Source of the DNA: an uncultured Chitinophagaceae bacterium
GTDB taxonomy: Bacteria; Bacteroidota; Ignavibacteria; UBA10030; UBA8401
Length of the DNA stretch: 64,000 bases
Direction: 5' to 3'
NCBI GenBank assembly: GCA_964596155.1
Contig: CAZQSI010000005.1
Coordinates: 2,275 to 66,274 of the forward strand
A program made the position numbers and the translations under genes. Shown here in pieces: positions 13,647 to 34,628 of this stretch (positions are counted from its first letter, which is position 1; each line of letters begins with the position of its first letter). Below the pieces are notes generated by a model. That model was given only the letters and a program-made list of their open reading frames with translations. It was not told the DNA's origin and made no database searches.

Positions 13647-15602
13647 ATGAAAATAATATTCAGATCATTCGATGCAATACTTTTGACGGTCGTTGGCCTT
13701 TTTTCGGTTGTTCTGGCAGGCGGTCCGACAGCAACGCGTAACGGGGCTCCCGTCCGTTACAACAATGCTTCTCCAATTACATACAAAACCGATCAGGGCC
13801 CAATGGGCAGTTTTACCAACACGGTTGCAACAAACCTCACGATAAACAGTTTTCAGACATGGCAGAATGTTTCGACCGCTCAGATTTCTTTTACAAACGG
13901 CGGACAGCTTCCGGTGGATGTCACAAGCGCTAATTATACCACGTACATTGACAATTTTACGGACGGTATCAATCCGATGATATTCGATTCGGACGGTTCG
14001 CTGGTTGAAGCGATGCTTGGTTCCGGTTCATCGAATACCGTTATCGGATTTGCCGGTTCGTCGTATTTTACATCAGGACCGAATGAAGGAAAGTATGCCG
14101 AAGGTCAGGCAGTGATGAACGGAAAATTTGCGAATAATCCGTTCACGGAGGCACAATTTAAATCAACATTTGTACATGAATTCGGTCACTTTATCGGTCT
14201 TGATCACTCGCAGATCAACTCCCACATGGCGAATGATAACAACAAAAGTAACGAGATCTATATTCCGACCATGTATCCGACATCGACGGACGACGACGTT
14301 CCGCTCGGTGATCTGAATCCCGATGATATTGCGGCCGTCTCATTGCTCTATCCCGCATCGAACTTTGCAACGAGCACCGGTAAAATATCTGGAACGGTGA
14401 CGAGATTCGACAATTCCGCTGCGCTGGGTGTAAATGTCGTTGCATTCAGTACAGGATCGGATTCACTGATGAACCGCATCTCCACCGTGACAGACTATTA
14501 TAAACAAAACAGCGGAGCATTCACGCTGGTCGGACTGGCGCCGGGAAATTATTATGTTTTTATTGAACCGATTAAAACTTCATTTATCGAAGGCTCCAGT
14601 GTCGGTCCGTACGCCGGCTCCGCATCGGATTTGTCGTTTGTCAACCCGGTATCCATGGAATATTGGAATGCGGGAAATGAATCGTGGGATCCTTCGGTTG
14701 ATGATGCTTCCGCTAAAACCGCTGTTGCCGTATCGGCAAATGCAACTACGTCTAACATTAATATTGTGGCCAATAAAATCGGCAATGCACCGCAGACATC
14801 GATTTTACAATATCATTTTGGACTCAGCGGTGTATTTAAGCTTCCTTCGCAGTATGCCGATTCCCGGTACGCGGTACGGTTTACTCCCGCGTCGAATGCA
14901 AAGTTTCTCAGGACGGAATTTTATATCAACGGTTCGAACAATGCGATTTCCGGCAATGGAACATTAAAGGTATCGATGCATCAAAATACTGCTGGAAGCC
15001 TCGGCGGAATTCCGGGAGCCCAAATAGGAACGGCCGTGAATATTCCATTTGCACAAATTACAAAAGGAACCTACAACACTGTTAATTTTTCATCTCAAAA
15101 TTTGCCGGTGACCGCCAATACGAATTTTCATATGGTGTTCGAAGTTGTCGGCGGTGCGGGCGACACGCTGCAGTTTGTGACTGATGACGGTTCAAATTCC
15201 AGCGATCGGTCTTCATCCTATTTTAATAATGCATGGGTGAATATTAAGCACCCGACAAATTACGGCATCGGATACAATCTTGCGATCAGGGCGGTGGTGG
15301 AAGTGCCTGCATCCGTAAAAGAAGAAGCATTGTTTGCGGAAACATTTTCACTTTCGCAAAATTATCCAAATCCGTTCAATCCTTCCACAACGATCGCATT
15401 TTCAATTCCTGTTGAAGGTCTGGTAACGGTGAAAGTGTTCACACTGCTCGGCGAGGAAGTGACGACACTTGTACAGGAACATTTGATGTCCGGAGCGTAT
15501 TCGACATCGTTTGATGGATCAAAACTTTCCAGCGGTATGTATTTCTACACCATTACGGCAGGGGAGTTTTCCCAAACAAAGAAGATGCTTTTGCTTAAAT
15601 AA
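13647..15602 (+). CDS. secreted metzincin (matrixin-like zinc metalloprotease) with T9SS C-terminal sorting domain
   Basis: 651 aa with a signal peptide. Has the HEFGHFIGLDH zinc motif (HExxHxxGxxH) and the downstream Met-turn IPTMYP. A CarboxypepD_reg-like segment follows. The C-terminal 75 aa (NYPNPFNPSTTIAF ... GMYFYTI) match the T9SS CTD pattern. Confidence 0.8.
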   Translation: MKIIFRSFDAILLTVVGLFSVVLAGGPTATRNGAPVRYNNASPITYKTDQGPMGSFTNTVATNLTINSFQTWQNVSTAQISFTNGGQLPVDVTSANYTTYIDNFTDGINPMIFDSDGSLVEAMLGSGSSNTVIGFAGSSYFTSGPNEGKYAEGQAVMNGKFANNPFTEAQFKSTFVHEFGHFIGLDHSQINSHMANDNNKSNEIYIPTMYPTSTDDDVPLGDLNPDDIAAVSLLYPASNFATSTGKISGTVTRFDNSAALGVNVVAFSTGSDSLMNRISTVTDYYKQNSGAFTLVGLAPGNYYVFIEPIKTSFIEGSSVGPYAGSASDLSFVNPVSMEYWNAGNESWDPSVDDASAKTAVAVSANATTSNINIVANKIGNAPQTSILQYHFGLSGVFKLPSQYADSRYAVRFTPASNAKFLRTEFYINGSNNAISGNGTLKVSMHQNTAGSLGGIPGAQIGTAVNIPFAQITKGTYNTVNFSSQNLPVTANTNFHMVFEVVGGAGDTLQFVTDDGSNSSDRSSSYFNNAWVNIKHPTNYGIGYNLAIRAVVEVPASVKEEALFAETFSLSQNYPNPFNPSTTIAFSIPVEGLVTVKVFTLLGEEVTTLVQEHLMSGAYSTSFDGSKLSSGMYFYTITAGEFSQTKKMLLLK

Positions 15603-15711: not shown

Positions 15712-18201
15712 TTGACAATGGCTTTTTTCAAGCAAACTTTTTTGTCGCTCTACGCTCTCAGGTTTCCTGAAATCTATATCGTCGCTCTTTTTTTTGCTGG
15801 TGCGGGCTGGTATTCGATGTCCGATTATCTGTTCTATACGCCAGATAGTGCTCGGTATGTCATTTGGTCAAACTCTCTGGCATCGGGTGACGGATTTTCT
15901 GATTATACCTCTCCGGAACCAAAAAAATATGTCATCCATGCGCCGTTATACTCGGTTGTCATGGCGCCGGCAGCATTCTTTTTTGAAAATAACATCATCG
16001 CAATAAAAGCCGGAACGGTCATTCTTGCTGTTATTCTGCTGTTCGTCTTTCATGGTTACATGCTCAGCCGTTCCGGAAGGTGGGCTGCGTTATTCGCTGC
16101 TGCCGTCTTGGCGTTTCACCCGTTGACGCTGGTCTATTCCACCCAGCCGCTGTCCGAAATTCTCTTTGCACTGTCGTTTATTGCGCTGTTGGCGGTATTG
16201 GACAAGTGGGTAAGCACCGGATATGTCCGCAACAGACTGCTTGCCGGAGTTGTTATTTCGCTGCTTGCATGTATCCTTTCGAGGGAAATCGGAATGATAT
16301 TGCTTCTTGCCGTCGTTCTTTATGTGGCAATGCAAAAACAGTATGAAAAAGCAGCAATTATTTTCATGTCTGTCATCATCGTCTACTCTCTCTGGCTGTT
16401 TAGAAACGAATTGCTGATCGCTGGTCAGGAGCAGCCGGAATTGCGAAATATGACTCTGATCGTTTCTCACATTCTGACGTCGCATGAGCAGTCGTTATTT
16501 CTCGAATTTTACACCCGCATGATGGTAAACGGTGAATTTTATATTCAACAGCTTCACTCACTCATTTTTTATTCTCAGTTTACTCCGTCCGGAGCGTACG
16601 AATCATCCATCATGCCTGTTGTTGACAGAACGTCCGTTTATATCGTTGCAGCACAACAAGCGGTTTCCATCATCTTTCCTCTGCTCGCGGCATTTCCGTT
16701 GGTGCTTCTTGCCGCCGGAATCATCAAAGAACGAACAAATAAACACTTTCTTTTTATCTACATTTTTTTCCTTCCGCTGTATCTCTGCCTTCTGATGATC
16801 TATCCGGTGTATGATATTCGATTTCTCTATCCGCTTCTGCTGATGCTGATTCTGCTAGCGGGAATCGGATTCGGAGAATTGCTGCTCAGAAAAAACTCAT
16901 ACATAACGGCAGCACTGATCATTTGTTCATTGGCTGCATTGATACCGAATGTTCTGTGGGGTTTAAGCTACATTGAAGAAGGAAATACGTATCATTCGGA
17001 TCAACTGGAATATTTCAACGAATTAAAGAAGCATCCCGAAAAATTGACATCGTTGAACAAACCGTTTGGAAAAGCCGCAGAGTGGATTACAAGCAGGAAC
17101 GATTCATCAGAAGTGATCATTTCCCGATGGAAGGAGCTGGGACTTTATCTGCAGAACAAAAAAATTTTTCTGATGGAATCATTCACTCCCATTGCATCAT
17201 TTGAACAGACGATTCGGGATTATGGCGTGCGGTATATCGTGACGACGAAAAATGATTATGACTGGCATGAATATGAATTTCAGATGAATCTTTCTCGTCG
17301 GTATTCGTTTGTCCTGGTGCACTCTGTTGCGGATTTTGATATTTATGAAGTAAAAAATGTCACAAAAGAAAATCCCAAACGTGTTGATACACATCAGGCA
17401 TATCAATTCCTTTTTTATCATCTTGGCCGCGGTAATTATGATACACTGATGACGTTCTTCAGGAGCAATGAAGAAATTGTCAATGCCAATCCTTCGCTGC
17501 GATTTTACCGGGGGGTGACAAGGGAATGTGCCGGAGATCTCGACACCGCTCTCATTGAATTCGAGGAATTATACCGGCTGCCGCAAGGTATTTCCATGTC
17601 CCAGCAGATCGGATTTCACAAAAATGTTATTGACAAGCGAAAAGCTGCCTTAAGAAGTTTGAATGCTCAGGAACGGTCGGCGTTGACGTTTAATGTTGCG
17701 CTGAATTATTGGGAGCTTGATTTGAGGCAGAGTGCGTTCGATTTTCTCGAACGGACGCTGGTCATAGACAGCATGTATATGCCAGCATATAGTTTGAAGA
17801 TCTATTTTTCACTTGTGAATCAGGACACGGCAAGTGCCAAGACGACATTCACCTATGCAGCAAAGCAATTCCCTTCGGAACCGGTGATATTCGTATTTTC
17901 AGAACTATTTTCGCGGTTCGATTCATTGACAAAGGCAGGAACATATAAAAGAACTGCTGAACTCTATCGGAGAGCGGCAAATGATTACCAGTTGTTAGGG
18001 TTATCGGAAAGTTCGCTGGAAGGGTTGTGGTATGCACATATGTTGGACCGGAGCAATATCGTATATTCAATTGCATTAGCTTCCTTGTTTGAGAAAAAAT
18101 CCAAGTATTATCCCGCCTTAAAAATATTAGAATATACTAATTCAGTGAATTCTGACAAAAACATTCAAAAACGGATTGAAGAACTCAAACGGAGGTATTG
18201 A
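15712..18201 (+). CDS. polytopic GT-C-type (ArnT/PMT-like) glycosyltransferase with C-terminal TPR-like domain
   Basis: 829 aa. About 11-13 hydrophobic helices span the first 420 aa, with an acidic first loop (TPDSARY ... SGDGFSD), as in GT-C enzymes. The C-terminal 300 aa are helical-repeat/TPR-like. The call rests on architecture, not a search. Start is TTG 15712 or ATG 15718. Confidence 0.55.
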   Translation: MTMAFFKQTFLSLYALRFPEIYIVALFFAGAGWYSMSDYLFYTPDSARYVIWSNSLASGDGFSDYTSPEPKKYVIHAPLYSVVMAPAAFFFENNIIAIKAGTVILAVILLFVFHGYMLSRSGRWAALFAAAVLAFHPLTLVYSTQPLSEILFALSFIALLAVLDKWVSTGYVRNRLLAGVVISLLACILSREIGMILLLAVVLYVAMQKQYEKAAIIFMSVIIVYSLWLFRNELLIAGQEQPELRNMTLIVSHILTSHEQSLFLEFYTRMMVNGEFYIQQLHSLIFYSQFTPSGAYESSIMPVVDRTSVYIVAAQQAVSIIFPLLAAFPLVLLAAGIIKERTNKHFLFIYIFFLPLYLCLLMIYPVYDIRFLYPLLLMLILLAGIGFGELLLRKNSYITAALIICSLAALIPNVLWGLSYIEEGNTYHSDQLEYFNELKKHPEKLTSLNKPFGKAAEWITSRNDSSEVIISRWKELGLYLQNKKIFLMESFTPIASFEQTIRDYGVRYIVTTKNDYDWHEYEFQMNLSRRYSFVLVHSVADFDIYEVKNVTKENPKRVDTHQAYQFLFYHLGRGNYDTLMTFFRSNEEIVNANPSLRFYRGVTRECAGDLDTALIEFEELYRLPQGISMSQQIGFHKNVIDKRKAALRSLNAQERSALTFNVALNYWELDLRQSAFDFLERTLVIDSMYMPAYSLKIYFSLVNQDTASAKTTFTYAAKQFPSEPVIFVFSELFSRFDSLTKAGTYKRTAELYRRAANDYQLLGLSESSLEGLWYAHMLDRSNIVYSIALASLFEKKSKYYPALKILEYTNSVNSDKNIQKRIEELKRRY

Positions 18202-28319: not shown

Positions 28320-29222
28320 GTGTCATATAAAATACGAAATACAATTGTTCTTGCTGTTCTGATTCTGCTGGTGACCATTATCGGCGGATACGTCACGATT
28401 TTTTTCCAGCCGAAAAAAATCGATCAGAACAAAAAGGAAGCGGCAAAGATCACGTCGCAGCTTCAGGATAATACCGAACAGCTTGCAGCGATTGATGCAG
28501 GACAGAAACGGCTTCGTGAAACCCTGCACCGCTGGAACAACCGCGTGAAGGAAATCTCCGCGTCGGATGTCTCCTCCCAGACATACGGTTACCTAAGCGA
28601 CATCATTGACGAAAGCGGCGCACAACAGCTGAAGATGAACCTCTCCCTGACCGGTTCGAAGAACGAAGGAACAGTCGGATATAATACATACAAAATTACC
28701 GGAACATCGGAATTTCCGAATATTTTCAGATTTATTTGGCTGCTGGAAAACGGACGCAAACTCTATAAAATATCAAGTCTTGTGCTTCGCAGCGATGAAG
28801 TTGCGTTTGATTCTCTTGAGTATCCTAAAATCGCCATCTCGTACGACATGGAGATCAATGCCTTTTTCACTCAGGAAGCAACGCTGGGAATGCCGGTGAT
28901 GAAACCAGATTCCACGCCGCAGCCGATCACCTCAAATCCGTTCCAGCCGAGCATTTTGCGGAAGACGCCGTCAAACGTCCGCAATCTTGTTGATGTGGAC
29001 AGAGTCTCGGTCAAAGCAACCGCGAACGGAAAAGCATTGGTAATGAACGAAGCAGGAAAACTGGTAACGCTGCAGGTCGGCGACGAGGTTTATTTGGGCA
29101 AAGTGTCGAACATCATTCCGAGAGAAGGCGCGGTGGAATTCGTATTAAATGACGGCGGCATCGTGAAAACGAAACGGATCCAAATTCAATTTGAGAATAA
29201 AGATAAGGACGCAATGCAATGA
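28320..29222 (+). CDS. PilO-like protein with PilP-like C-terminal beta domain
   Basis: 300 aa with a GTG start. Has an N-terminal TM helix and coiled coil like PilO. The C-terminal segment VSVKATANGKALVMNEAGKLVTLQVGDEVYLGKV resembles the PilP beta-sandwich. Assignment is by architecture. Confidence 0.5.
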   Translation: MSYKIRNTIVLAVLILLVTIIGGYVTIFFQPKKIDQNKKEAAKITSQLQDNTEQLAAIDAGQKRLRETLHRWNNRVKEISASDVSSQTYGYLSDIIDESGAQQLKMNLSLTGSKNEGTVGYNTYKITGTSEFPNIFRFIWLLENGRKLYKISSLVLRSDEVAFDSLEYPKIAISYDMEINAFFTQEATLGMPVMKPDSTPQPITSNPFQPSILRKTPSNVRNLVDVDRVSVKATANGKALVMNEAGKLVTLQVGDEVYLGKVSNIIPREGAVEFVLNDGGIVKTKRIQIQFENKDKDAMQ

Positions 29223-30511
29223 AACGACTGATCGTTCTTTCCACATGTCTGATGATGCTGGGCGTCTTTCTGCCTGCACAAAATAACAGAGAAAAGAGAA
29301 TGTTCCTGAACGAATATGTCTCTCCCGAAGAACTCGTTTCCATGTCCAAAAGCCTGACGTTCGATAAAGCAATCCTGTTGTTCAGCGATTTCAGCAAGAA
29401 ATACATGAACAAGATCATCGTTGACGTAAGCAACAACAAGAAGCCGATCGGCATTGACATTGAGAACACATATTGGTATCAGGCGTTTGAAAATGTTCTG
29501 AGAGAAAACGGTCAATGGTACGATGAGCGGGAAGAATTTTTTTATGTCTATTCTGTCCTCGATTCCCAGCGTGCCGTGGTATCGAACGGAGGAGCACGTG
29601 CGGCAGCGGCGGCGGTCGACTCCACGTCCAAAATGTTGATGCGTCAACGCGACATCAGAATTTCATCCGTTTTCTTTACCGTTGATGTTGTAAAATCATT
29701 GGAAGCGGGAATCAACTGGAGTTTCTTCTACTCCGGTGATACGACGCAGGCAGGTGCTCGTCCCACACAGTTCGGAACCGAATTCTACGGAGGTCTTGCC
29801 GATCCCAAAGCGTCTGCAGGCGGATCGACCGGCGGCGGTGCAACGACCACCACAGGATTTTTCGGACGGTTTATTCCTGCAATTTCATTCACGAATATTT
29901 CCGCACTTATTTCTTTCTTCTCGGGTAACCAGTTGGGTGATGTGCTTTCGGGTCCGTCCATCGTTGTCTCTTCCGGAAAACCGGGGAGAATTCAGGTTGG
30001 TCAGGACTTTTATATAACGACAAAAGATTTCGCCGGCAATACCGTTCAGTCCGTACAGTCTGCCGGTATCATCATCAACGTCAAGCCGACGCTCTATGAA
30101 GAAAACGGAATCAAATTCATCAATATGGAAATTGAAGCGGAGCGGAGCACGGTGTCGGGTGCCGGAGCAAATCCCATTGTCAACAAGTCTCAGGCAAAAA
30201 CATTTTCGGTGTTGTTCGACGGCGAAGAAACGGTGATCGGCGGTCTTTATACGACTTCCGAAGTTGTCGACCGCGGCGGTGTCCCGTTTTTGAAAGATCT
30301 CCCATGGTGGGTTCTCGGATTGAAATATATTTTCGGGTATGACAAAGTAACGACTTCGACTCAGGAGCTGATTATTCTGATGAAAGCGGAAGTTATCCCG
30401 ACGATTGAAGAACGCGTGGCTGCTGCTGCCCAGAAAAAAGGTGTTAATCCGATTGAGCAGACACGGCTGCAGAATGCCTCAGAGATGGAGCGGTTGAAAC
30501 CGAAGAAATAA
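29219..30511 (+). CDS. pilQ: short secretin (PilQ/GspD family)
   Basis: 430 aa. ATGA overlap with the upstream gene. Has a signal peptide, one N0-like domain, and a secretin core ending GGVPFLKDLPWWVLGLKYIFG ... ELIILMKAEVI. Confidence 0.85.
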   Translation: MKRLIVLSTCLMMLGVFLPAQNNREKRMFLNEYVSPEELVSMSKSLTFDKAILLFSDFSKKYMNKIIVDVSNNKKPIGIDIENTYWYQAFENVLRENGQWYDEREEFFYVYSVLDSQRAVVSNGGARAAAAAVDSTSKMLMRQRDIRISSVFFTVDVVKSLEAGINWSFFYSGDTTQAGARPTQFGTEFYGGLADPKASAGGSTGGGATTTTGFFGRFIPAISFTNISALISFFSGNQLGDVLSGPSIVVSSGKPGRIQVGQDFYITTKDFAGNTVQSVQSAGIIINVKPTLYEENGIKFINMEIEAERSTVSGAGANPIVNKSQAKTFSVLFDGEETVIGGLYTTSEVVDRGGVPFLKDLPWWVLGLKYIFGYDKVTTSTQELIILMKAEVIPTIEERVAAAAQKKGVNPIEQTRLQNASEMERLKPKK

Positions 30512-30533: not shown

Positions 30534-30577
30534 TTTCGTCATGGCGATTTAATACGTTATGACGAAATCCTATTTTT
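30534..30577 (+). other. stem-loop between secretin and Ig-repeat gene (possible attenuator or partial terminator)
   Basis: TTTCGTCAT, a 16-nt loop, then ATGACGAAA, followed by TCCTATTTTTA. Confidence 0.3.
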
Positions 30578-30601: not shown

Positions 30602-33600
30602 ATGAATATTGTGAAACGAATCTCCGCCGGACTGCTGCTGATTGTAGTGCTAGGAATTTTTTCGTGTCAGGATCCAACCTCGGCAACGTCCGATGTTACG
30701 ATAATCGTCAGCGGTCAGGTGTTGAATCTTTCCAATGCTCCTCAGGACAGCGTTGTGATCACGCTGGGAAATCCGTTCCGGCGTGATACGACAAAAACGG
30801 ACGGTACGTTTTCCTATTCATTCGTAACAAGTTCCAAAGAAGAAGTTTCCACAACAATGTCGTTCCGGCACATCAATCTTTCATTCCGCGATACATCCCT
30901 TTCCGTTTCCTATGGTCCTGCGAAAAAAACCATTGCGGTCGGAGAGATGAAAATGAAGGGAGTCTCGGCCGCTCAAGACAGTATTCCCCCAACGAAAGCA
31001 TCGACACGTCCCGTTGTGATTACGTTCGTCCGTTCGACTTCACCGTTAATTTCAATACGGGGAGCGGGCAATGATGCAACAAATCTGACGTTTGAAGTAA
31101 GAGACTCACTCGGAATTCCTGTTGACCAGAAAAATCAGGTCACCGTATTCTTTAAAATTGTTGCAGAACCGGATAATCTTGTGGAACTCGGTCGTCCTTC
31201 TGCTCCGACGAATTCTGTCGGTCAGGTTACGGTCCGCCTTTCGTCAGGTCAAAAAGCCGGAATTGCTCAAGTGCAAGCAACGAGTATCGTAAAGAATGTG
31301 GCAGATACCACGAAGATGGATACGCTGAAATCTCCAATTGTCTCCGTAACCATTGCCGGAGGATTGCCGGTAGAGAGCAGGTTTACGATCGGTTCGCAAA
31401 AAGTGAATGTTCCCGGTTTGGTGAAATATGATTTAAGGAATACTATTACGGCAGTTGTCGGCGATACGTTTGGAAATCCCGTGCAAAAGGGAACTGTTGT
31501 TTATTTTTCAACGACCGGCGGTATTATTAAACCGTATGCAACGACGACAGAGGATGGAACAGTTGGAATAGATCTGATTACCGGTAATCCTGCGCCTTCC
31601 AACGGCATCGCAGTTGTTACGGCTCAGGTTGGTACTCCGGGCAGTGCAACACCGGGAAATAATGTTGTAATGAACGAGAGCGTCGTGATTAAGGGGTTGA
31701 AATCGAAGAAAACACAAAAAGAAAGTGACGCTGCTCTGCTTTCCAAGAGCAACAAGAGTTCAAGCGGTTTCACAAAGCAATTAAACATTCTTTTCTCCGG
31801 TGCACCGCTGATTACCTCCAACGATTCCGCCTATTTCAGTGTTCCACCGCTCGGAACGAAGCAGATTCAAGTTCGCGTGGCTGATTTCAACGGCAATCCA
31901 ATGGCGGAAGGAACGACAGTAAAAATCAGCGGCATCGGACTTGATACTTCCGGAGCCGTTCTCTCCGGCGATCTCGATAAAGTACTGCCGGATACGTATG
32001 ATAAGTCCTACACATTGTATAATATCAGTGTTGCAGATAAGAGAACAAAAAATCTGAGCTCACGCGTCCCGATTTCGATTATTGTAGAGGTGAACGGCCC
32101 GAACGGAAACGTAAAGAGAACATTATTCGGTGAATTGGCATCGGGTGTTTCCGACAGCGGCAAAGTTGGCTCAATTAATTTAGTAAGCAGTTCGATCGAT
32201 TCAATTGTCGTGTCCGGCGCAGGATCTCCTAATGCAATTAATATTCAAGCTCGAGTCCTGACGTCAACCGGAGGTCCCTCATCGAATATTCCTGTCAACT
32301 TTTCGATTGTAAAAAGCGTAAACGGCGGTGAGTATATCTCCAATTCGATTGCTTATACCAACGCCAGCGGTGTTGCAACAACAACACTCAACGCAGGAGT
32401 TCGCTCCGGACTCGTTCAGGTGCAAGCTTCCGTCCGAAGAGATTCGTTGTCAATGAATGCCGAATTAAAAAGCGTCTACATCAGAACGGGTAAGACGGCT
32501 GCAATCACGGTTGTCGGACTTTCTTCAACGAGTCTTTCTGTGAAAGGCGGCGGAGGAAATGAAAATGCAATTATAGTGTATGAAGCACAGGATTCACTCG
32601 GCAACCCGGTAGATATTTCCAATCAGTCAACTATTTCATTTTCAATGGTTGGAGATACTGCAGGTGCAAAAATTTCGCCAGCGTCGGCAAAAACCGATCC
32701 GAATTCAGGCAGGGTCACTGCTTCATTCTCATCAGGAACCAAAGCGGGTATTGTCCAGATCAAAGCAAGCACAGGATCCATCGTTTCTCCTCCTGCAACG
32801 ATCACAATTTCGGGCGGGTTTGCGGTCGATTCGCTCTTTAACTTCACAGGTTTGAAAAAGAATTACTCGATCTATCAAGCGAGCAATATTCTTATTGATG
32901 TGCTGGCAGGAGATAAATCCGGGAATCCGGTAAAACCGAGTACACCGATATATTTCACGACAGATGCGGGAGTAATCTCTGCTACGTCGCTTACGGATAA
33001 CGCAGGAAGAGCGACGGCAACACTGCAGATCGTGAACGACAAGAAACTGATGGGCAGACGATTTGTCACCGCAAAAACTGTCGGTGAAGGAAATGCAGAA
33101 ATAAAGAAAACAAAAACATTTATCCTCTCGGGTACACCTACGATCACAACAAGTGTTCCCAATGATTCCATTACGTTGTTTGACGGGACGTCAACGACGG
33201 TGAATTTCTTGATTGCCGATTCGCTCGGGAACCCTATTTCTTCCGGTCATACCTATCTTGTGTTTGTCGATGGTTCGGTGTCGTCTCAAATCGGCATTAC
33301 TGGAGATAGAACAGGAACGGTTGAAGACTCGGATGATAACCTCAACGGCGTCCAATACAGCGTTGTGATCAGCGATCTGCTTGAAAATGCAGGCACCGGC
33401 GGAACGTTTAAGCTGCGGATTCAAACAAACGGTCCGACCGGCACAACGACAAAGACGATCAACGGCAGGCTGCTTGCACCGGCTAATATCATCGTTCCTC
33501 CGTCTGCCAGAGTCCCTGCATCAATTGCATTGACAGGTGTTTCTTCCAATGACATTTCGATTGCAGGTGTCGGCGGAACGGAAAATTCTACATTGACATT

Positions 33601-34570
33601 TGAAGTACGGGATTCGGTTGGTTCCCCGATCACAATCGAGAACCGGGCACGCGTTTCCTTTAAAACTAATTTTTCACCAAATACATTCACTCTCGGCGGT
33701 ACCAATCCGGTGATTTTACCGACATTGGACAGCACAGACGAGAACGGAAAAGTAAGAGTCTCTATCACTAGCGGTACACAGGCGGGTGTATTGCAGCTTG
33801 AAGCTGTTATCAATCTGACGAATCCAGTGAGAACAATAAAATCTCAGCCTGTGATCATTTCCGTTAGTTCCGGATTTGCAGATCAAGGCCACTTTACCAT
33901 CGCGCCGAGTCAGTATAATTTCCCCGGTTTGCAAAAGGCATTCCTCAGCATGAACATTTCTGTTCAGGTCGGGGATCGATACAGCAATCCGGTAAAGCAG
34001 GGGACTTCAGTGTATTTTAACTCGGCGAACGGAATTATACAAACACAAAAGGGTCTGACAGACATCAATGGATTTGTCACGATGACGCTTTTCTCGGGAA
34101 ATCCATACCCACTGTCACCAAATCTTGCCTCCGGCTTGTCAAACGGCTTCTCACGGTTATATGCGCGGACAATCGGCAAGGACAGCGCGTTTGTGACGGA
34201 TTCTGTTGAGATTCTCTGGTCAGGAAGTCCTATCATCACGAAAACCGATACTATCAATTCGTTTACAATTCCGAATGCCGGCAGTGCGGGACCGTTTACA
34301 TTCACGGTGCAGGATTATCTCGGACACCCGATGTCTCAGGGAACAACAATAGAAATTGAGGCAAATGGATTGTCGATATCAGGAAATTCCAATGTGACAA
34401 TGCCTGATACAAAATCTTCCGGACCGGGATTAACATCGTTTACATTTGCCGTCACCGATGCCAATACAACGGATTCTGATCCGCCGTCACCGACACTTAT
34501 AACAATCGTTGTTCGACATCCGGTTTATGGTGTCTACAAACTGGTAACGGCGTCAGGCACGGTTGATTAA
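30602..34570 (+). CDS. giant lipoprotein with bacterial Ig-like (Big_1/invasin-type) repeats
   Basis: 1322 aa. Lipobox LGIFSC with Cys22. Has an N-terminal CarboxypepD_reg-like domain. Repeated Big_1-like units follow, for example AVVGDTFGNPVQKGTVVYFSTTGG, LAGDKSGNPVKPSTPIYFTTDAG and VQVGDRYSNPVKQGTSVYFNSANG. Confidence 0.8.
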   Translation: MNIVKRISAGLLLIVVLGIFSCQDPTSATSDVTIIVSGQVLNLSNAPQDSVVITLGNPFRRDTTKTDGTFSYSFVTSSKEEVSTTMSFRHINLSFRDTSLSVSYGPAKKTIAVGEMKMKGVSAAQDSIPPTKASTRPVVITFVRSTSPLISIRGAGNDATNLTFEVRDSLGIPVDQKNQVTVFFKIVAEPDNLVELGRPSAPTNSVGQVTVRLSSGQKAGIAQVQATSIVKNVADTTKMDTLKSPIVSVTIAGGLPVESRFTIGSQKVNVPGLVKYDLRNTITAVVGDTFGNPVQKGTVVYFSTTGGIIKPYATTTEDGTVGIDLITGNPAPSNGIAVVTAQVGTPGSATPGNNVVMNESVVIKGLKSKKTQKESDAALLSKSNKSSSGFTKQLNILFSGAPLITSNDSAYFSVPPLGTKQIQVRVADFNGNPMAEGTTVKISGIGLDTSGAVLSGDLDKVLPDTYDKSYTLYNISVADKRTKNLSSRVPISIIVEVNGPNGNVKRTLFGELASGVSDSGKVGSINLVSSSIDSIVVSGAGSPNAINIQARVLTSTGGPSSNIPVNFSIVKSVNGGEYISNSIAYTNASGVATTTLNAGVRSGLVQVQASVRRDSLSMNAELKSVYIRTGKTAAITVVGLSSTSLSVKGGGGNENAIIVYEAQDSLGNPVDISNQSTISFSMVGDTAGAKISPASAKTDPNSGRVTASFSSGTKAGIVQIKASTGSIVSPPATITISGGFAVDSLFNFTGLKKNYSIYQASNILIDVLAGDKSGNPVKPSTPIYFTTDAGVISATSLTDNAGRATATLQIVNDKKLMGRRFVTAKTVGEGNAEIKKTKTFILSGTPTITTSVPNDSITLFDGTSTTVNFLIADSLGNPISSGHTYLVFVDGSVSSQIGITGDRTGTVEDSDDNLNGVQYSVVISDLLENAGTGGTFKLRIQTNGPTGTTTKTINGRLLAPANIIVPPSARVPASIALTGVSSNDISIAGVGGTENSTLTFEVRDSVGSPITIENRARVSFKTNFSPNTFTLGGTNPVILPTLDSTDENGKVRVSITSGTQAGVLQLEAVINLTNPVRTIKSQPVIISVSSGFADQGHFTIAPSQYNFPGLQKAFLSMNISVQVGDRYSNPVKQGTSVYFNSANGIIQTQKGLTDINGFVTMTLFSGNPYPLSPNLASGLSNGFSRLYARTIGKDSAFVTDSVEILWSGSPIITKTDTINSFTIPNAGSAGPFTFTVQDYLGHPMSQGTTIEIEANGLSISGNSNVTMPDTKSSGPGLTSFTFAVTDANTTDSDPPSPTLITIVVRHPVYGVYKLVTASGTVD

Positions 34571-34595
34571 ATGACGTTGTAGTTAAGAATGAATA

Positions 34596-34628
34596 CTGCG
34601 TCCCGCAAAAGCGGGACGCAGTTGTTTT
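34596..34628. terminator. bidirectional rho-independent terminator
   Basis: CTGCGTCCCGC, loop AAAA, GCGGGACGCAG, then TTGTTTT. Sits between convergent genes. Confidence 0.85.

Follow-up and report, generated by a model that had tools for sequence, protein, structure and literature searches.

A secretin-linked family of lipoproteins built from immunoglobulin-like supermodules in a type IV pilus locus of an uncultured Ignavibacteria bacterium

The 64,000-nucleotide stretch of DNA analysed here (hereafter, the window) comes from an uncultured Chitinophagaceae bacterium placed by GTDB in the Ignavibacteria (assembly GCA_964596155.1, contig CAZQSI010000005.1, positions 2,275 to 66,274), and its forward strand carries a type IV pilus (T4P) locus that ends with the gene of a lipoprotein rich in immunoglobulin-like (Ig) domains. 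The open reading frame (ORF) of this Ig gene stays open for 1322 codons plus stop, is preceded by a Shine-Dalgarno sequence (AAGGTG) 5 nt before the ATG, and starts 90 nt after the stop codon of a short secretin gene (Table 1). Further upstream on the same strand are two pilin-like genes, followed in the inventory of the locus by PilC-like (T2SSF), PilB-like (T2SSE) and PilT-like genes. Three further upstream genes have no significant Pfam match, the third of them showing a sub-threshold match to DUF4900 only, and the same lack of significant Pfam matches applies to the 521-aa and 300-aa genes between the PilT-like gene and the secretin. Downstream, the Ig gene is separated by 24 nt from a terminator-like hairpin, beyond which lies a convergent UDG-family gene. 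Since the GC content is uniform across the locus (0.455-0.478), the Ig gene can be regarded as native to it.

By its predicted features, the encoded protein is an Ig-repeat lipoprotein, in which a lipobox is followed by a rod of Ig domains. The signal peptide (LLLIVVLGIFS-C22-QD) satisfies the lipobox pattern [LVI][ASTVI][GAS]-C, and Cys22, the only cysteine of the protein, is predicted to be acylated as a substrate of Lgt and LspA. A lipobox cysteine is kept at the equivalent position in essentially all full-length homologues, with a family consensus C-[QE]-[ND]-P-[TN]-x-P that reads C-Q-D-P-T-S in the window protein. When searched as a whole, the protein exceeds the Pfam gathering scores of Big_1 and Invasin_D3, with 98.6 and 83.2 bits, respectively, and 7 stretches in either case; a sequence search of the PDB with it gave no match, and an NCBIfam search gave nothing meaningful. 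A BLASTP comparison of the whole protein with itself returned the diagonal only, and the internal repeat was therefore measured segment against segment. In this way, a threefold repeat with a unit of ~340 aa and inter-unit identities of 28-32% was obtained, where residues 136-512 align with 631-957 (28% identity, E 4e-25), 137-500 with 972-1307 (31%, E 8e-38) and 633-910 with 973-1270 (32%, E 2e-32). Judged by these alignments, the threefold repeat is far beyond chance. At the DNA level the units retain just short and imperfect repeats, which indicates that the copies are old.

AlphaFold2 models computed with family alignments describe the protein as a chain of beta-sandwiches. For residues 631-1322, six such domains were modelled with a predicted local distance difference test (pLDDT) score of 93.2, whereas the model of residues 22-630 (pLDDT 87.1) comprises a seven-stranded N-terminal domain, the three sandwiches of unit 1, an extra domain and a disordered insert. 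The overall build would thus be one CarboxypepD_reg-like beta-sandwich followed by ten Ig domains of the invasin/Big_1 type, arranged as three supermodules of three domains each plus the extra one. The third domain of every unit, which starts with SG.P.IT and harbours a D..GNP...GT motif, is barely detected by Pfam and is modelled as an Ig-like beta-sandwich, and the Lys-rich insert of unit 1 is poorly conserved and absent from units 2 and 3. Foldseek searches returned mostly generic multi-Ig chains, with strings of Ig or macroglobulin (MG) domains from complement, alpha-2-macroglobulin, axonemal proteins and contactins, among which were invasin (1cwv, E 2e-12) and the D00-D0 region of intimin (6tqd). 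Two gradients run along the rod: its charge changes from basic near the anchor (isoelectric point, pI, 8-10) to acidic at the tip (pI 5.4), and conservation to orthologues climbs outward from the anchor, from 35-55% identity in the N-domain to 62-86% in unit 3.

A preliminary description, made from the letters of the window, had proposed an Ig-repeat lipoprotein with Big_1-like domains and a three-part unit present in three diverged copies, encoded by the last co-oriented gene of a pilus locus, and all of this agrees with the lipobox, the Pfam and AlphaFold2 results, the segment alignments and the closing hairpin with the convergent gene behind it. Its unit borders at 136-513 and 960-1322 are retained, but the second unit, which had been placed from residue 520, starts at 631, since residues 520-630 align to the first third of the supermodule hidden Markov model (HMM) only and form an extra single Big_1 domain. 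Its CarboxypepD_reg-like assignment of the N-domain is weak in the window protein itself (PF13620, E 0.007, below cut-off) and becomes clearer in homologues, both by direct search (E 5e-7 in locus L059; labels L and P with a number denote loci and proteins of the comparison) and in precomputed matches.

Table 1. Features of the Ig-rod lipoprotein gene and its surroundings (positions within the window)
Feature	Position	Strand	Details
Secretin gene, 430 aa, conserved upstream neighbour	29219..30511	+	Pfam Secretin 5.5e-27
Conserved terminator-like hairpin, secretin-Ig gap	30534..30567	+	13-bp stem TTTCGTC...GACGAAA, then TCCTATTTTT T-run
Ig-rod lipoprotein gene	30602..34570	+	1322 aa plus stop; Pfam Big_1 2.2e-28, Invasin_D3 2e-23
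Predicted lipoprotein signal peptide and lipobox, aa 1-22, GIFS-C22	30602..30667	+	Cys and post-Cys motif kept family-wide
N-terminal seven-stranded beta-sandwich, aa 23-135, CarboxypepD_reg-like	30668..31006	+	AlphaFold2 pLDDT ~90; membrane-proximal, least conserved domain
Supermodule 1, aa 136-513	31007..32140	+	Ig domains A (136-240), B (241-346), C (387-513)
Disordered segment rich in Lys, aa 347-386, inserted between B and C in supermodule 1	31640..31759	+	AlphaFold2 pLDDT <50 (model residues 326-365)
Single additional Big_1 domain, aa 520-630, after supermodule 1 and before supermodule 2	32159..32491	+	Best Pfam Big_1 stretch
Supermodule 2, aa 631-959, three Ig domains	32492..33478	+	BLASTP, supermodule HMM, AlphaFold2, Pfam
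Supermodule 3, aa 960-1322, conserved C-terminal 'head', by unit comparison the ancestral core of the family	33479..34567	+	Most conserved part
Terminator-like hairpin, bidirectional intrinsic type, closing the locus	34595..34622	.	12-bp stem, 9 GC pairs, T-rich tails on both strands

The window protein belongs to a large family. A word-indexed search recovered 113 homologues, of which the named ones all come from metagenome-assembled genomes (MAGs) of Ignavibacteriota or 'Bacteroidota' and are called hypothetical or 'Ig-like domain-containing', none of them bearing a functional name. An exhaustive search with the C-terminal unit against representatives clustered at 50% identity yielded 1305 clusters with a threshold of E <= 1e-3, 245 of which also reached E <= 1e-30. 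The homologues range in length from 460 to 4280 aa. The genomic context of eight family members with 27-64% identity to the window protein was looked up, and all eight directly follow, in the same orientation, the secretin of the same gene cluster, while the genes beyond them vary between contigs (UDG, epimerase or aminotransferase). In the reverse approach, species-representative genomes were scanned with a secretin profile, and the count was made on the 65 loci in which 1.5 kb or more followed the secretin. The Ig gene was found adjacent to the secretin in 43 of them and within 2 kb in a further five, whereas the remaining 17 had none within 10 kb. Adjacency is kept even where identity drops to 27-35%, and it spans three phylum labels, namely Ignavibacteriota, Kryptoniota (L052, L059, L060) and Calditrichota (L064, L071, L082, L085). 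The genetic tie of the Ig gene to one kind of secretin is strict and ancient. With respect to close orthologues, the Ig protein shows 60-64% identity versus 66-69% for the secretin. All the secretins of this type (L013-L087 and the window, last ~40 aa) carry a charged tail of ~34-61 aa after the secretin domain.

Some loci depart from strict adjacency. In three of the five loci with the Ig gene within 2 kb (L055, L057 and L067), a small ORF of 129-144 aa separates it from the secretin, and in the loci where ORFs of this size were checked they encoded a response regulator. Seven of the 17 Ig-less loci were analysed with Pfam, revealing response-regulator or hybrid histidine-kinase genes after the secretin in six (L053, from an Ignavibacterium album MAG; L062, L069, L076, L084; and L086, from a Melioribacter sp.), in the form of a single-domain response regulator and/or a hybrid histidine kinase of 900-1190 aa, and a glutamate dehydrogenase gene in L070; ORFs of matching sizes follow the secretin in other Ig-less loci (L063, L073-L075, L087). 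Because 17 of the 65 related loci lack it, the Ig gene cannot be a universal part of the machine. Absence from orthologous pilus loci had been put forward in the preliminary description as the result that would speak against its proposal, and the adjacency in all eight look-ups, together with the 48 loci of the reverse scan, mostly points the other way. The Kryptoniota- and Calditrichota-labelled carriers encode a minimal protein of ~460-500 aa, composed of lipobox, N-domain and a single supermodule, whose gene starts about 0-40 nt after the secretin stop. In the Kryptoniota-labelled loci, the minimal Ig gene is followed by a co-oriented ORF of ~130 aa (L052:9476-9865, L059:12531-12926, L060:12273-12689).

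The number of supermodules differs widely within the family. Counts with the supermodule HMM gave 2-6 units in the first set of homologues and 1-9 in the genome loci, the total range of the family being 1 to about 12, so that the length of the rod varies because of the different number of internal units (from 0 to about 11). The single unit of all 14 minimal proteins tested has its best match in unit 3 of the window protein, and of the 150 top representatives, most have their own best match to unit 3 right at the C-terminal end. A tree was built from 83 units and rooted at its midpoint. One side of the root holds every last unit and the majority of the single units of minimal forms, apart from the first and middle units except for two of L041; the other single units, those of L059, L064 and L082, group with both units of P0106. 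The first and middle units group by position inside sub-clades, which points to lineage-specific internal duplications. These unit comparisons show that the C-terminal unit is orthologous throughout the family and represents its ancestral core, to which internal units have been added in separate lineages. Relatives that share the architecture have separate orthologues of each of the three window units (50-86% identity), and the triplication is therefore old relative to these. The ancient internal triplication of the preliminary description is consequently right as regards the age and divergence of the copies, but it is only part of a history in which the C-terminal unit came first and the number of units changed from lineage to lineage.

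Several observations concern the arrangement of the family genes. In L007/L013 and in L018, tandem paralogues follow the secretin, with a ~1200-aa protein first and a ~860-aa protein next, and a lipobox cysteine was present in each of the N-termini of tandem paralogues that were checked (P0038, P0058 and P0059). Four apparent paralogues in L005 (362-13462) were rejected as such: the ORFs (1150, 1405, 711 and 1154 aa) overlap, the last of them (P0093) has no signal peptide, and they are probably one gene of ~4400 aa split by frameshifts of a long-read assembly. Finally, a complete supermodule was found to close the C-terminal end of a few large proteins that are unrelated in their other parts and whose genes do not neighbour a secretin, P0108, P0109 (L091:8001-13031) and P0110 (L092:2465-8236), the last two with a lipobox, which hints that the supermodule may be a portable C-terminal module. 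P0109 shows extra matches to Kre9_KNH, Reelin-subrepeat and BNR.

In the clade of the window, the gap between secretin and Ig gene measures 70-240 nt and contains a hairpin that occurs once in the window and recurs at the same place in L002, L003, L009, L014, L018 and L020. In the hairpin alignment, 94.9% of the cells are paired, compensatory changes affect four pairs, and the covariation score was reached by none of 500 shuffles. A conserved direct motif similar to GTGTCA..TGTCA precedes it. Only ~34 nt separate the hairpin from the ATG of the Ig gene, which makes a promoter in between unlikely. The simplest reading is that the hairpin would act as a partial terminator or attenuator, or as a 3' stabiliser of the secretin message, with the Ig gene being expressed below the secretin. 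Because this conserved terminator-like structure separates the two genes, their co-transcription is probably attenuated in the clade of the window.

Two other genes of the window deserve a mention. Positions 13647-15602 encode a predicted 651-aa metalloprotease (Peptidase_M10/M43 matches) with a CarboxypepD_reg domain and a Por_Secre_tail sorting domain of the type IX secretion system (T9SS), due to which the source organism appears to have a T9SS as well; the Ig-rod protein gave no match to Por_Secre_tail (PF18962). A polytopic protein of ~805-830 aa is syntenic with the pilus locus, being encoded upstream of the pilins in the window (15712-18201) and elsewhere downstream of the Ig gene in convergent orientation (L006:14709-17192, L008:17036-19516, L090:10988-13405). 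It shows weak matches to PMT_2 (L006, L090) and faint to weak matches to tetratricopeptide repeats (TPR; L006, L008), and no Pfam match was obtained for the window copy at E <= 0.001.

Among characterised proteins, the closest analogue would be InvL of Acinetobacter baumannii, a 492-aa invasin-like lipoprotein without a beta-barrel whose surface exposure needs the secretin of a type II secretion system (T2SS) (PMC9245377), whereas the surface lipoproteins of type II secretion, such as PulA of Klebsiella (PMC12802150), would form the second-closest class. Like the window protein, InvL combines an N-terminal lipobox with a barrel-less rod of invasin-type Ig domains and is tied to a type IV filament machine with a secretin, and its size is matched by the minimal form of the family (~470 aa, four beta-sandwich domains). 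Lipoprotein cargo of the T2SS has a sorting motif directly after the cysteine, and a role for GspN has been described (PMC12802150); the present family has a conserved post-Cys motif too, but of the form C-[QE]-[ND]-P and not GGG or ND(N/D), and no GspN was seen in the locus. There are other differences: the link is here a genetic one, through adjacency to the secretin, and the machine is a PilT-containing pilus instead of a T2SS; the lectin-like C-terminal cap is missing, the last domain being another beta-sandwich in the AlphaFold2 model; and the rod reaches 11 domains in the window protein and more than 35 in relatives. The Big_1/Invasin_D3 rod is also shared with the inverse autotransporters of the invasin/intimin type (type Ve; PDB 1cwv, 6tqd). 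Unlike these, the window protein is predicted to be lipid-anchored, has a signal peptide and a ~114-aa beta-sandwich in place of an N-terminal beta-barrel or LysM (no Pfam match), and lacks a tip of the C-type lectin kind, its last ~115 residues being modelled as an all-beta sandwich with no lectin match in Pfam.

Other known systems share only some of these traits. LigA and LigB of Leptospira are lipobox-containing surface adhesins with 12-13 tandem bacterial Ig-like repeats; however, these belong to Big_2 and not to Big_1, they repeat as single domains instead of three-domain supermodules, and they are not known to be linked to a secretin. PulA and the TcpF/CofJ proteins of type IVb pili exemplify cargo whose genes lie among or close to those of the type IV filament machine responsible for its export, PulA being a surface-anchored lipoprotein. 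Their folds are unrelated, since they are either enzymes or colonisation factors in soluble form, and no Ig-repeat rod encoded right after the secretin is known among them. The pilotins and accessory proteins of secretins (PilF/Tgl, PulS, TcpQ, BfpG, for which see PMC12531336, and TsaP) bind the secretin, and many of them are lipoproteins or have their gene next to that of the secretin. In contrast to the present family, they are small or of the TPR/LysM type and fixed in size, and none is known to have Ig supermodules or a variable number of repeats. The statement that model T4P systems contain no equivalent component, already present in the preliminary description, is upheld.

Given the analogy with InvL and PulA, the window protein is tentatively regarded as a surface adhesin with a lipid anchor that depends on the pilus machine for its display, with a rough probability of 0.45. 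In favour of this reading are the place of the gene right behind the secretin, the cysteine kept throughout the family, the rod of Ig domains with its invasin and intimin matches, the variable reach and the conserved distal unit. Architecture, fold, synteny and the history of the units are observed, and surface location, dependence on the secretin and adhesive function are inferred. After export by Sec, the Ig-rod protein would be acylated at Cys22 and then displayed on the cell surface in a manner dependent on the pilus/secretin machine, as the T2SS does for InvL and PulA. The conserved C-terminal supermodule would be the binding head, and the lineage-specific internal supermodules would serve as spacers setting the reach of this head from the membrane. 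A variable number of units and the occurrence of tandem paralogues are typical of surface adhesins and not of machine parts with a fixed stoichiometry, and the variable length also argues against a fixed-length role spanning the periplasm.

A number of observations weigh against surface display through the pilus machine. As judged from its PilT-type ATPase, the machine resembles a retractile pilus rather than a T2SS; related secretin loci without an Ig gene amount to 26%; the conserved hairpin intervenes between secretin and Ig gene in the clade of the window; and searches for RNA-seq runs with the window sequence found none, only DNA metagenomes. Regarding the sorting signals, no Pfam match to a GspN/AsmA-like gene was obtained among the genes of the locus, and the window protein does not have the GGG or ND(N/D) motif found at P2'-P4' in the T2SS lipoproteins of Acinetobacter (PMC12802150), only the Asn/Asp at +3 being similar. 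In the lipoprotein export signal (LES) of Bacteroidota, a pair of neighbouring acidic residues comes after a polar or basic one, at ~+3 to +5 (PMC5080379), and the window protein does not show this signal either, with a single acidic residue in C-Q-D-P-T-S; only 30 of 148 family members have an adjacent D/E pair at +2 to +6. In addition, the most conserved part of the protein is its distal head, though the tips of adhesins are often the most variable part, and a conserved partner of the cell itself would fit at least equally well.

This last point leads to a possible, if unlikely, role as a secretin accessory (pilotin, stabiliser or collar), where the C-terminal supermodule would bind the secretin or the pilus with the lipid tail in the outer membrane, in place of a TPR pilotin (PilF/Tgl) and of anchors of the AMIN/TsaP type, all of which the short 430-aa secretin lacks. 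The place of the gene directly after the secretin, with near-zero gaps in the minimal forms, is consistent with this role and resembles that of the TcpQ, BfpG and RcpB/TadD genes, which are similarly placed beside their secretins. In the same direction point a rate of evolution close to that of the secretin, the distal unit as the most conserved one, which would be expected if the partner were a conserved cell component, and the lack of any TPR lipoprotein or other pilotin candidate in the locus. Of the features of pilotins, however, the window protein has the lipoprotein nature and the neighbourhood of the secretin, while no TPR or PulS-like Pfam domain is present and size is highly variable: a series from 4 to more than 35 domains, plus tandem paralogues, is hard to square with a fixed structural role. 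The secretins whose loci lack the Ig gene speak against it too, as does the charged C-terminal tail of the secretin, a possible pilotin-binding S-domain, which is found both with and without the Ig gene, and in the clade of the window the terminator-like hairpin implies expression below the level of the secretin.

Alternatively, and this appears unlikely, the protein could be a lipoprotein of the surface or envelope that works independently, for example as an adhesin, a nutrient binder or a coat resembling an S-layer. It would be exported by another route, such as Lol followed by surface lipoprotein export of the Bacteroidota type, and would share with the pilus genes only a transcription unit or regulon. 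The same C-terminal supermodule ends P0108, P0109 and P0110, unrelated proteins encoded away from any secretin, two of them with a lipobox; acidic post-Cys residues, as in the Bacteroidota LES (PMC5080379), are present in part of the family; the metalloprotease with a Por_Secre_tail indicates a surface proteome of the T9SS type; and the hairpin may partly uncouple transcription. What such a protein would hardly explain is the adjacency to the secretin at 27-35% identity and under three phylum labels, while everything downstream changes, because such strict linkage is usually the mark of a functional tie. A quite unlikely extension of that tie would make the Ig rod an integral, previously unrecognised component of a distinct T4P machine of the Fibrobacterota-Chlorobiota-Bacteroidota (FCB) group, namely the one with leaderless pilins. 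In this case, the C-terminal supermodule of the rod would be dedicated to docking or export, would be read by the secretin or by the minor-pilin tip and would be reused as the C-terminal end of P0108, P0109 and P0110; the machine would then also display lipid-anchored Ig rods whose length is programmable. Finally, bacterial alpha-2-macroglobulins are also lipoproteins of many beta-sandwich domains, those of E. coli and Salmonella are among the top multi-domain Foldseek matches, and one domain gives a weak match to Pfam MG4 (E 0.0077), all of which would recall a periplasmic protease trap of this type. Such a trap is extremely improbable and was rejected: the structural matches have TM-scores of 0.14-0.2 and root-mean-square deviations of >40 A, as generic strings of sandwiches do, there is no thioester motif (CxEQ; the sole Cys is that of the lipobox), and Pfam detects neither a thioester nor an alpha-2-macroglobulin receptor-binding domain.

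Ig-repeat lipoprotein adhesins were already known, as was one invasin-like lipoprotein that is cargo of a T2SS. A search of the literature on the T4P of Ignavibacteria or on secretin-linked Ig lipoproteins found nothing specific, and three aspects appear to be new in this respect: a large family linked to a T4P secretin in MAGs of three phylum labels of the FCB group, its three-domain supermodule with a conserved terminal unit, and its natural series of lengths. They bear on the open question of how lipid-anchored proteins cross the outer membrane via type IV filament machines, where the part played by GspN and by the sorting motif was not reported until late 2025 (PMC12802150). The family offers a natural and phylogenetically broad case, from a minimal form of ~470 aa to variants of up to ~4300 aa. 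If its link to the secretin were only transcriptional, the Ig gene would encode a surface Ig-repeat lipoprotein of the ordinary kind. A functional link would make the family a new class of accessory or cargo in type IV pilus biology and would single out its conserved C-terminal module as a possible signal for docking or export. It would also provide access to the adhesion and aggregation of Ignavibacteriota-type organisms, which occur in sand filters, bioreactors, soils and groundwater.

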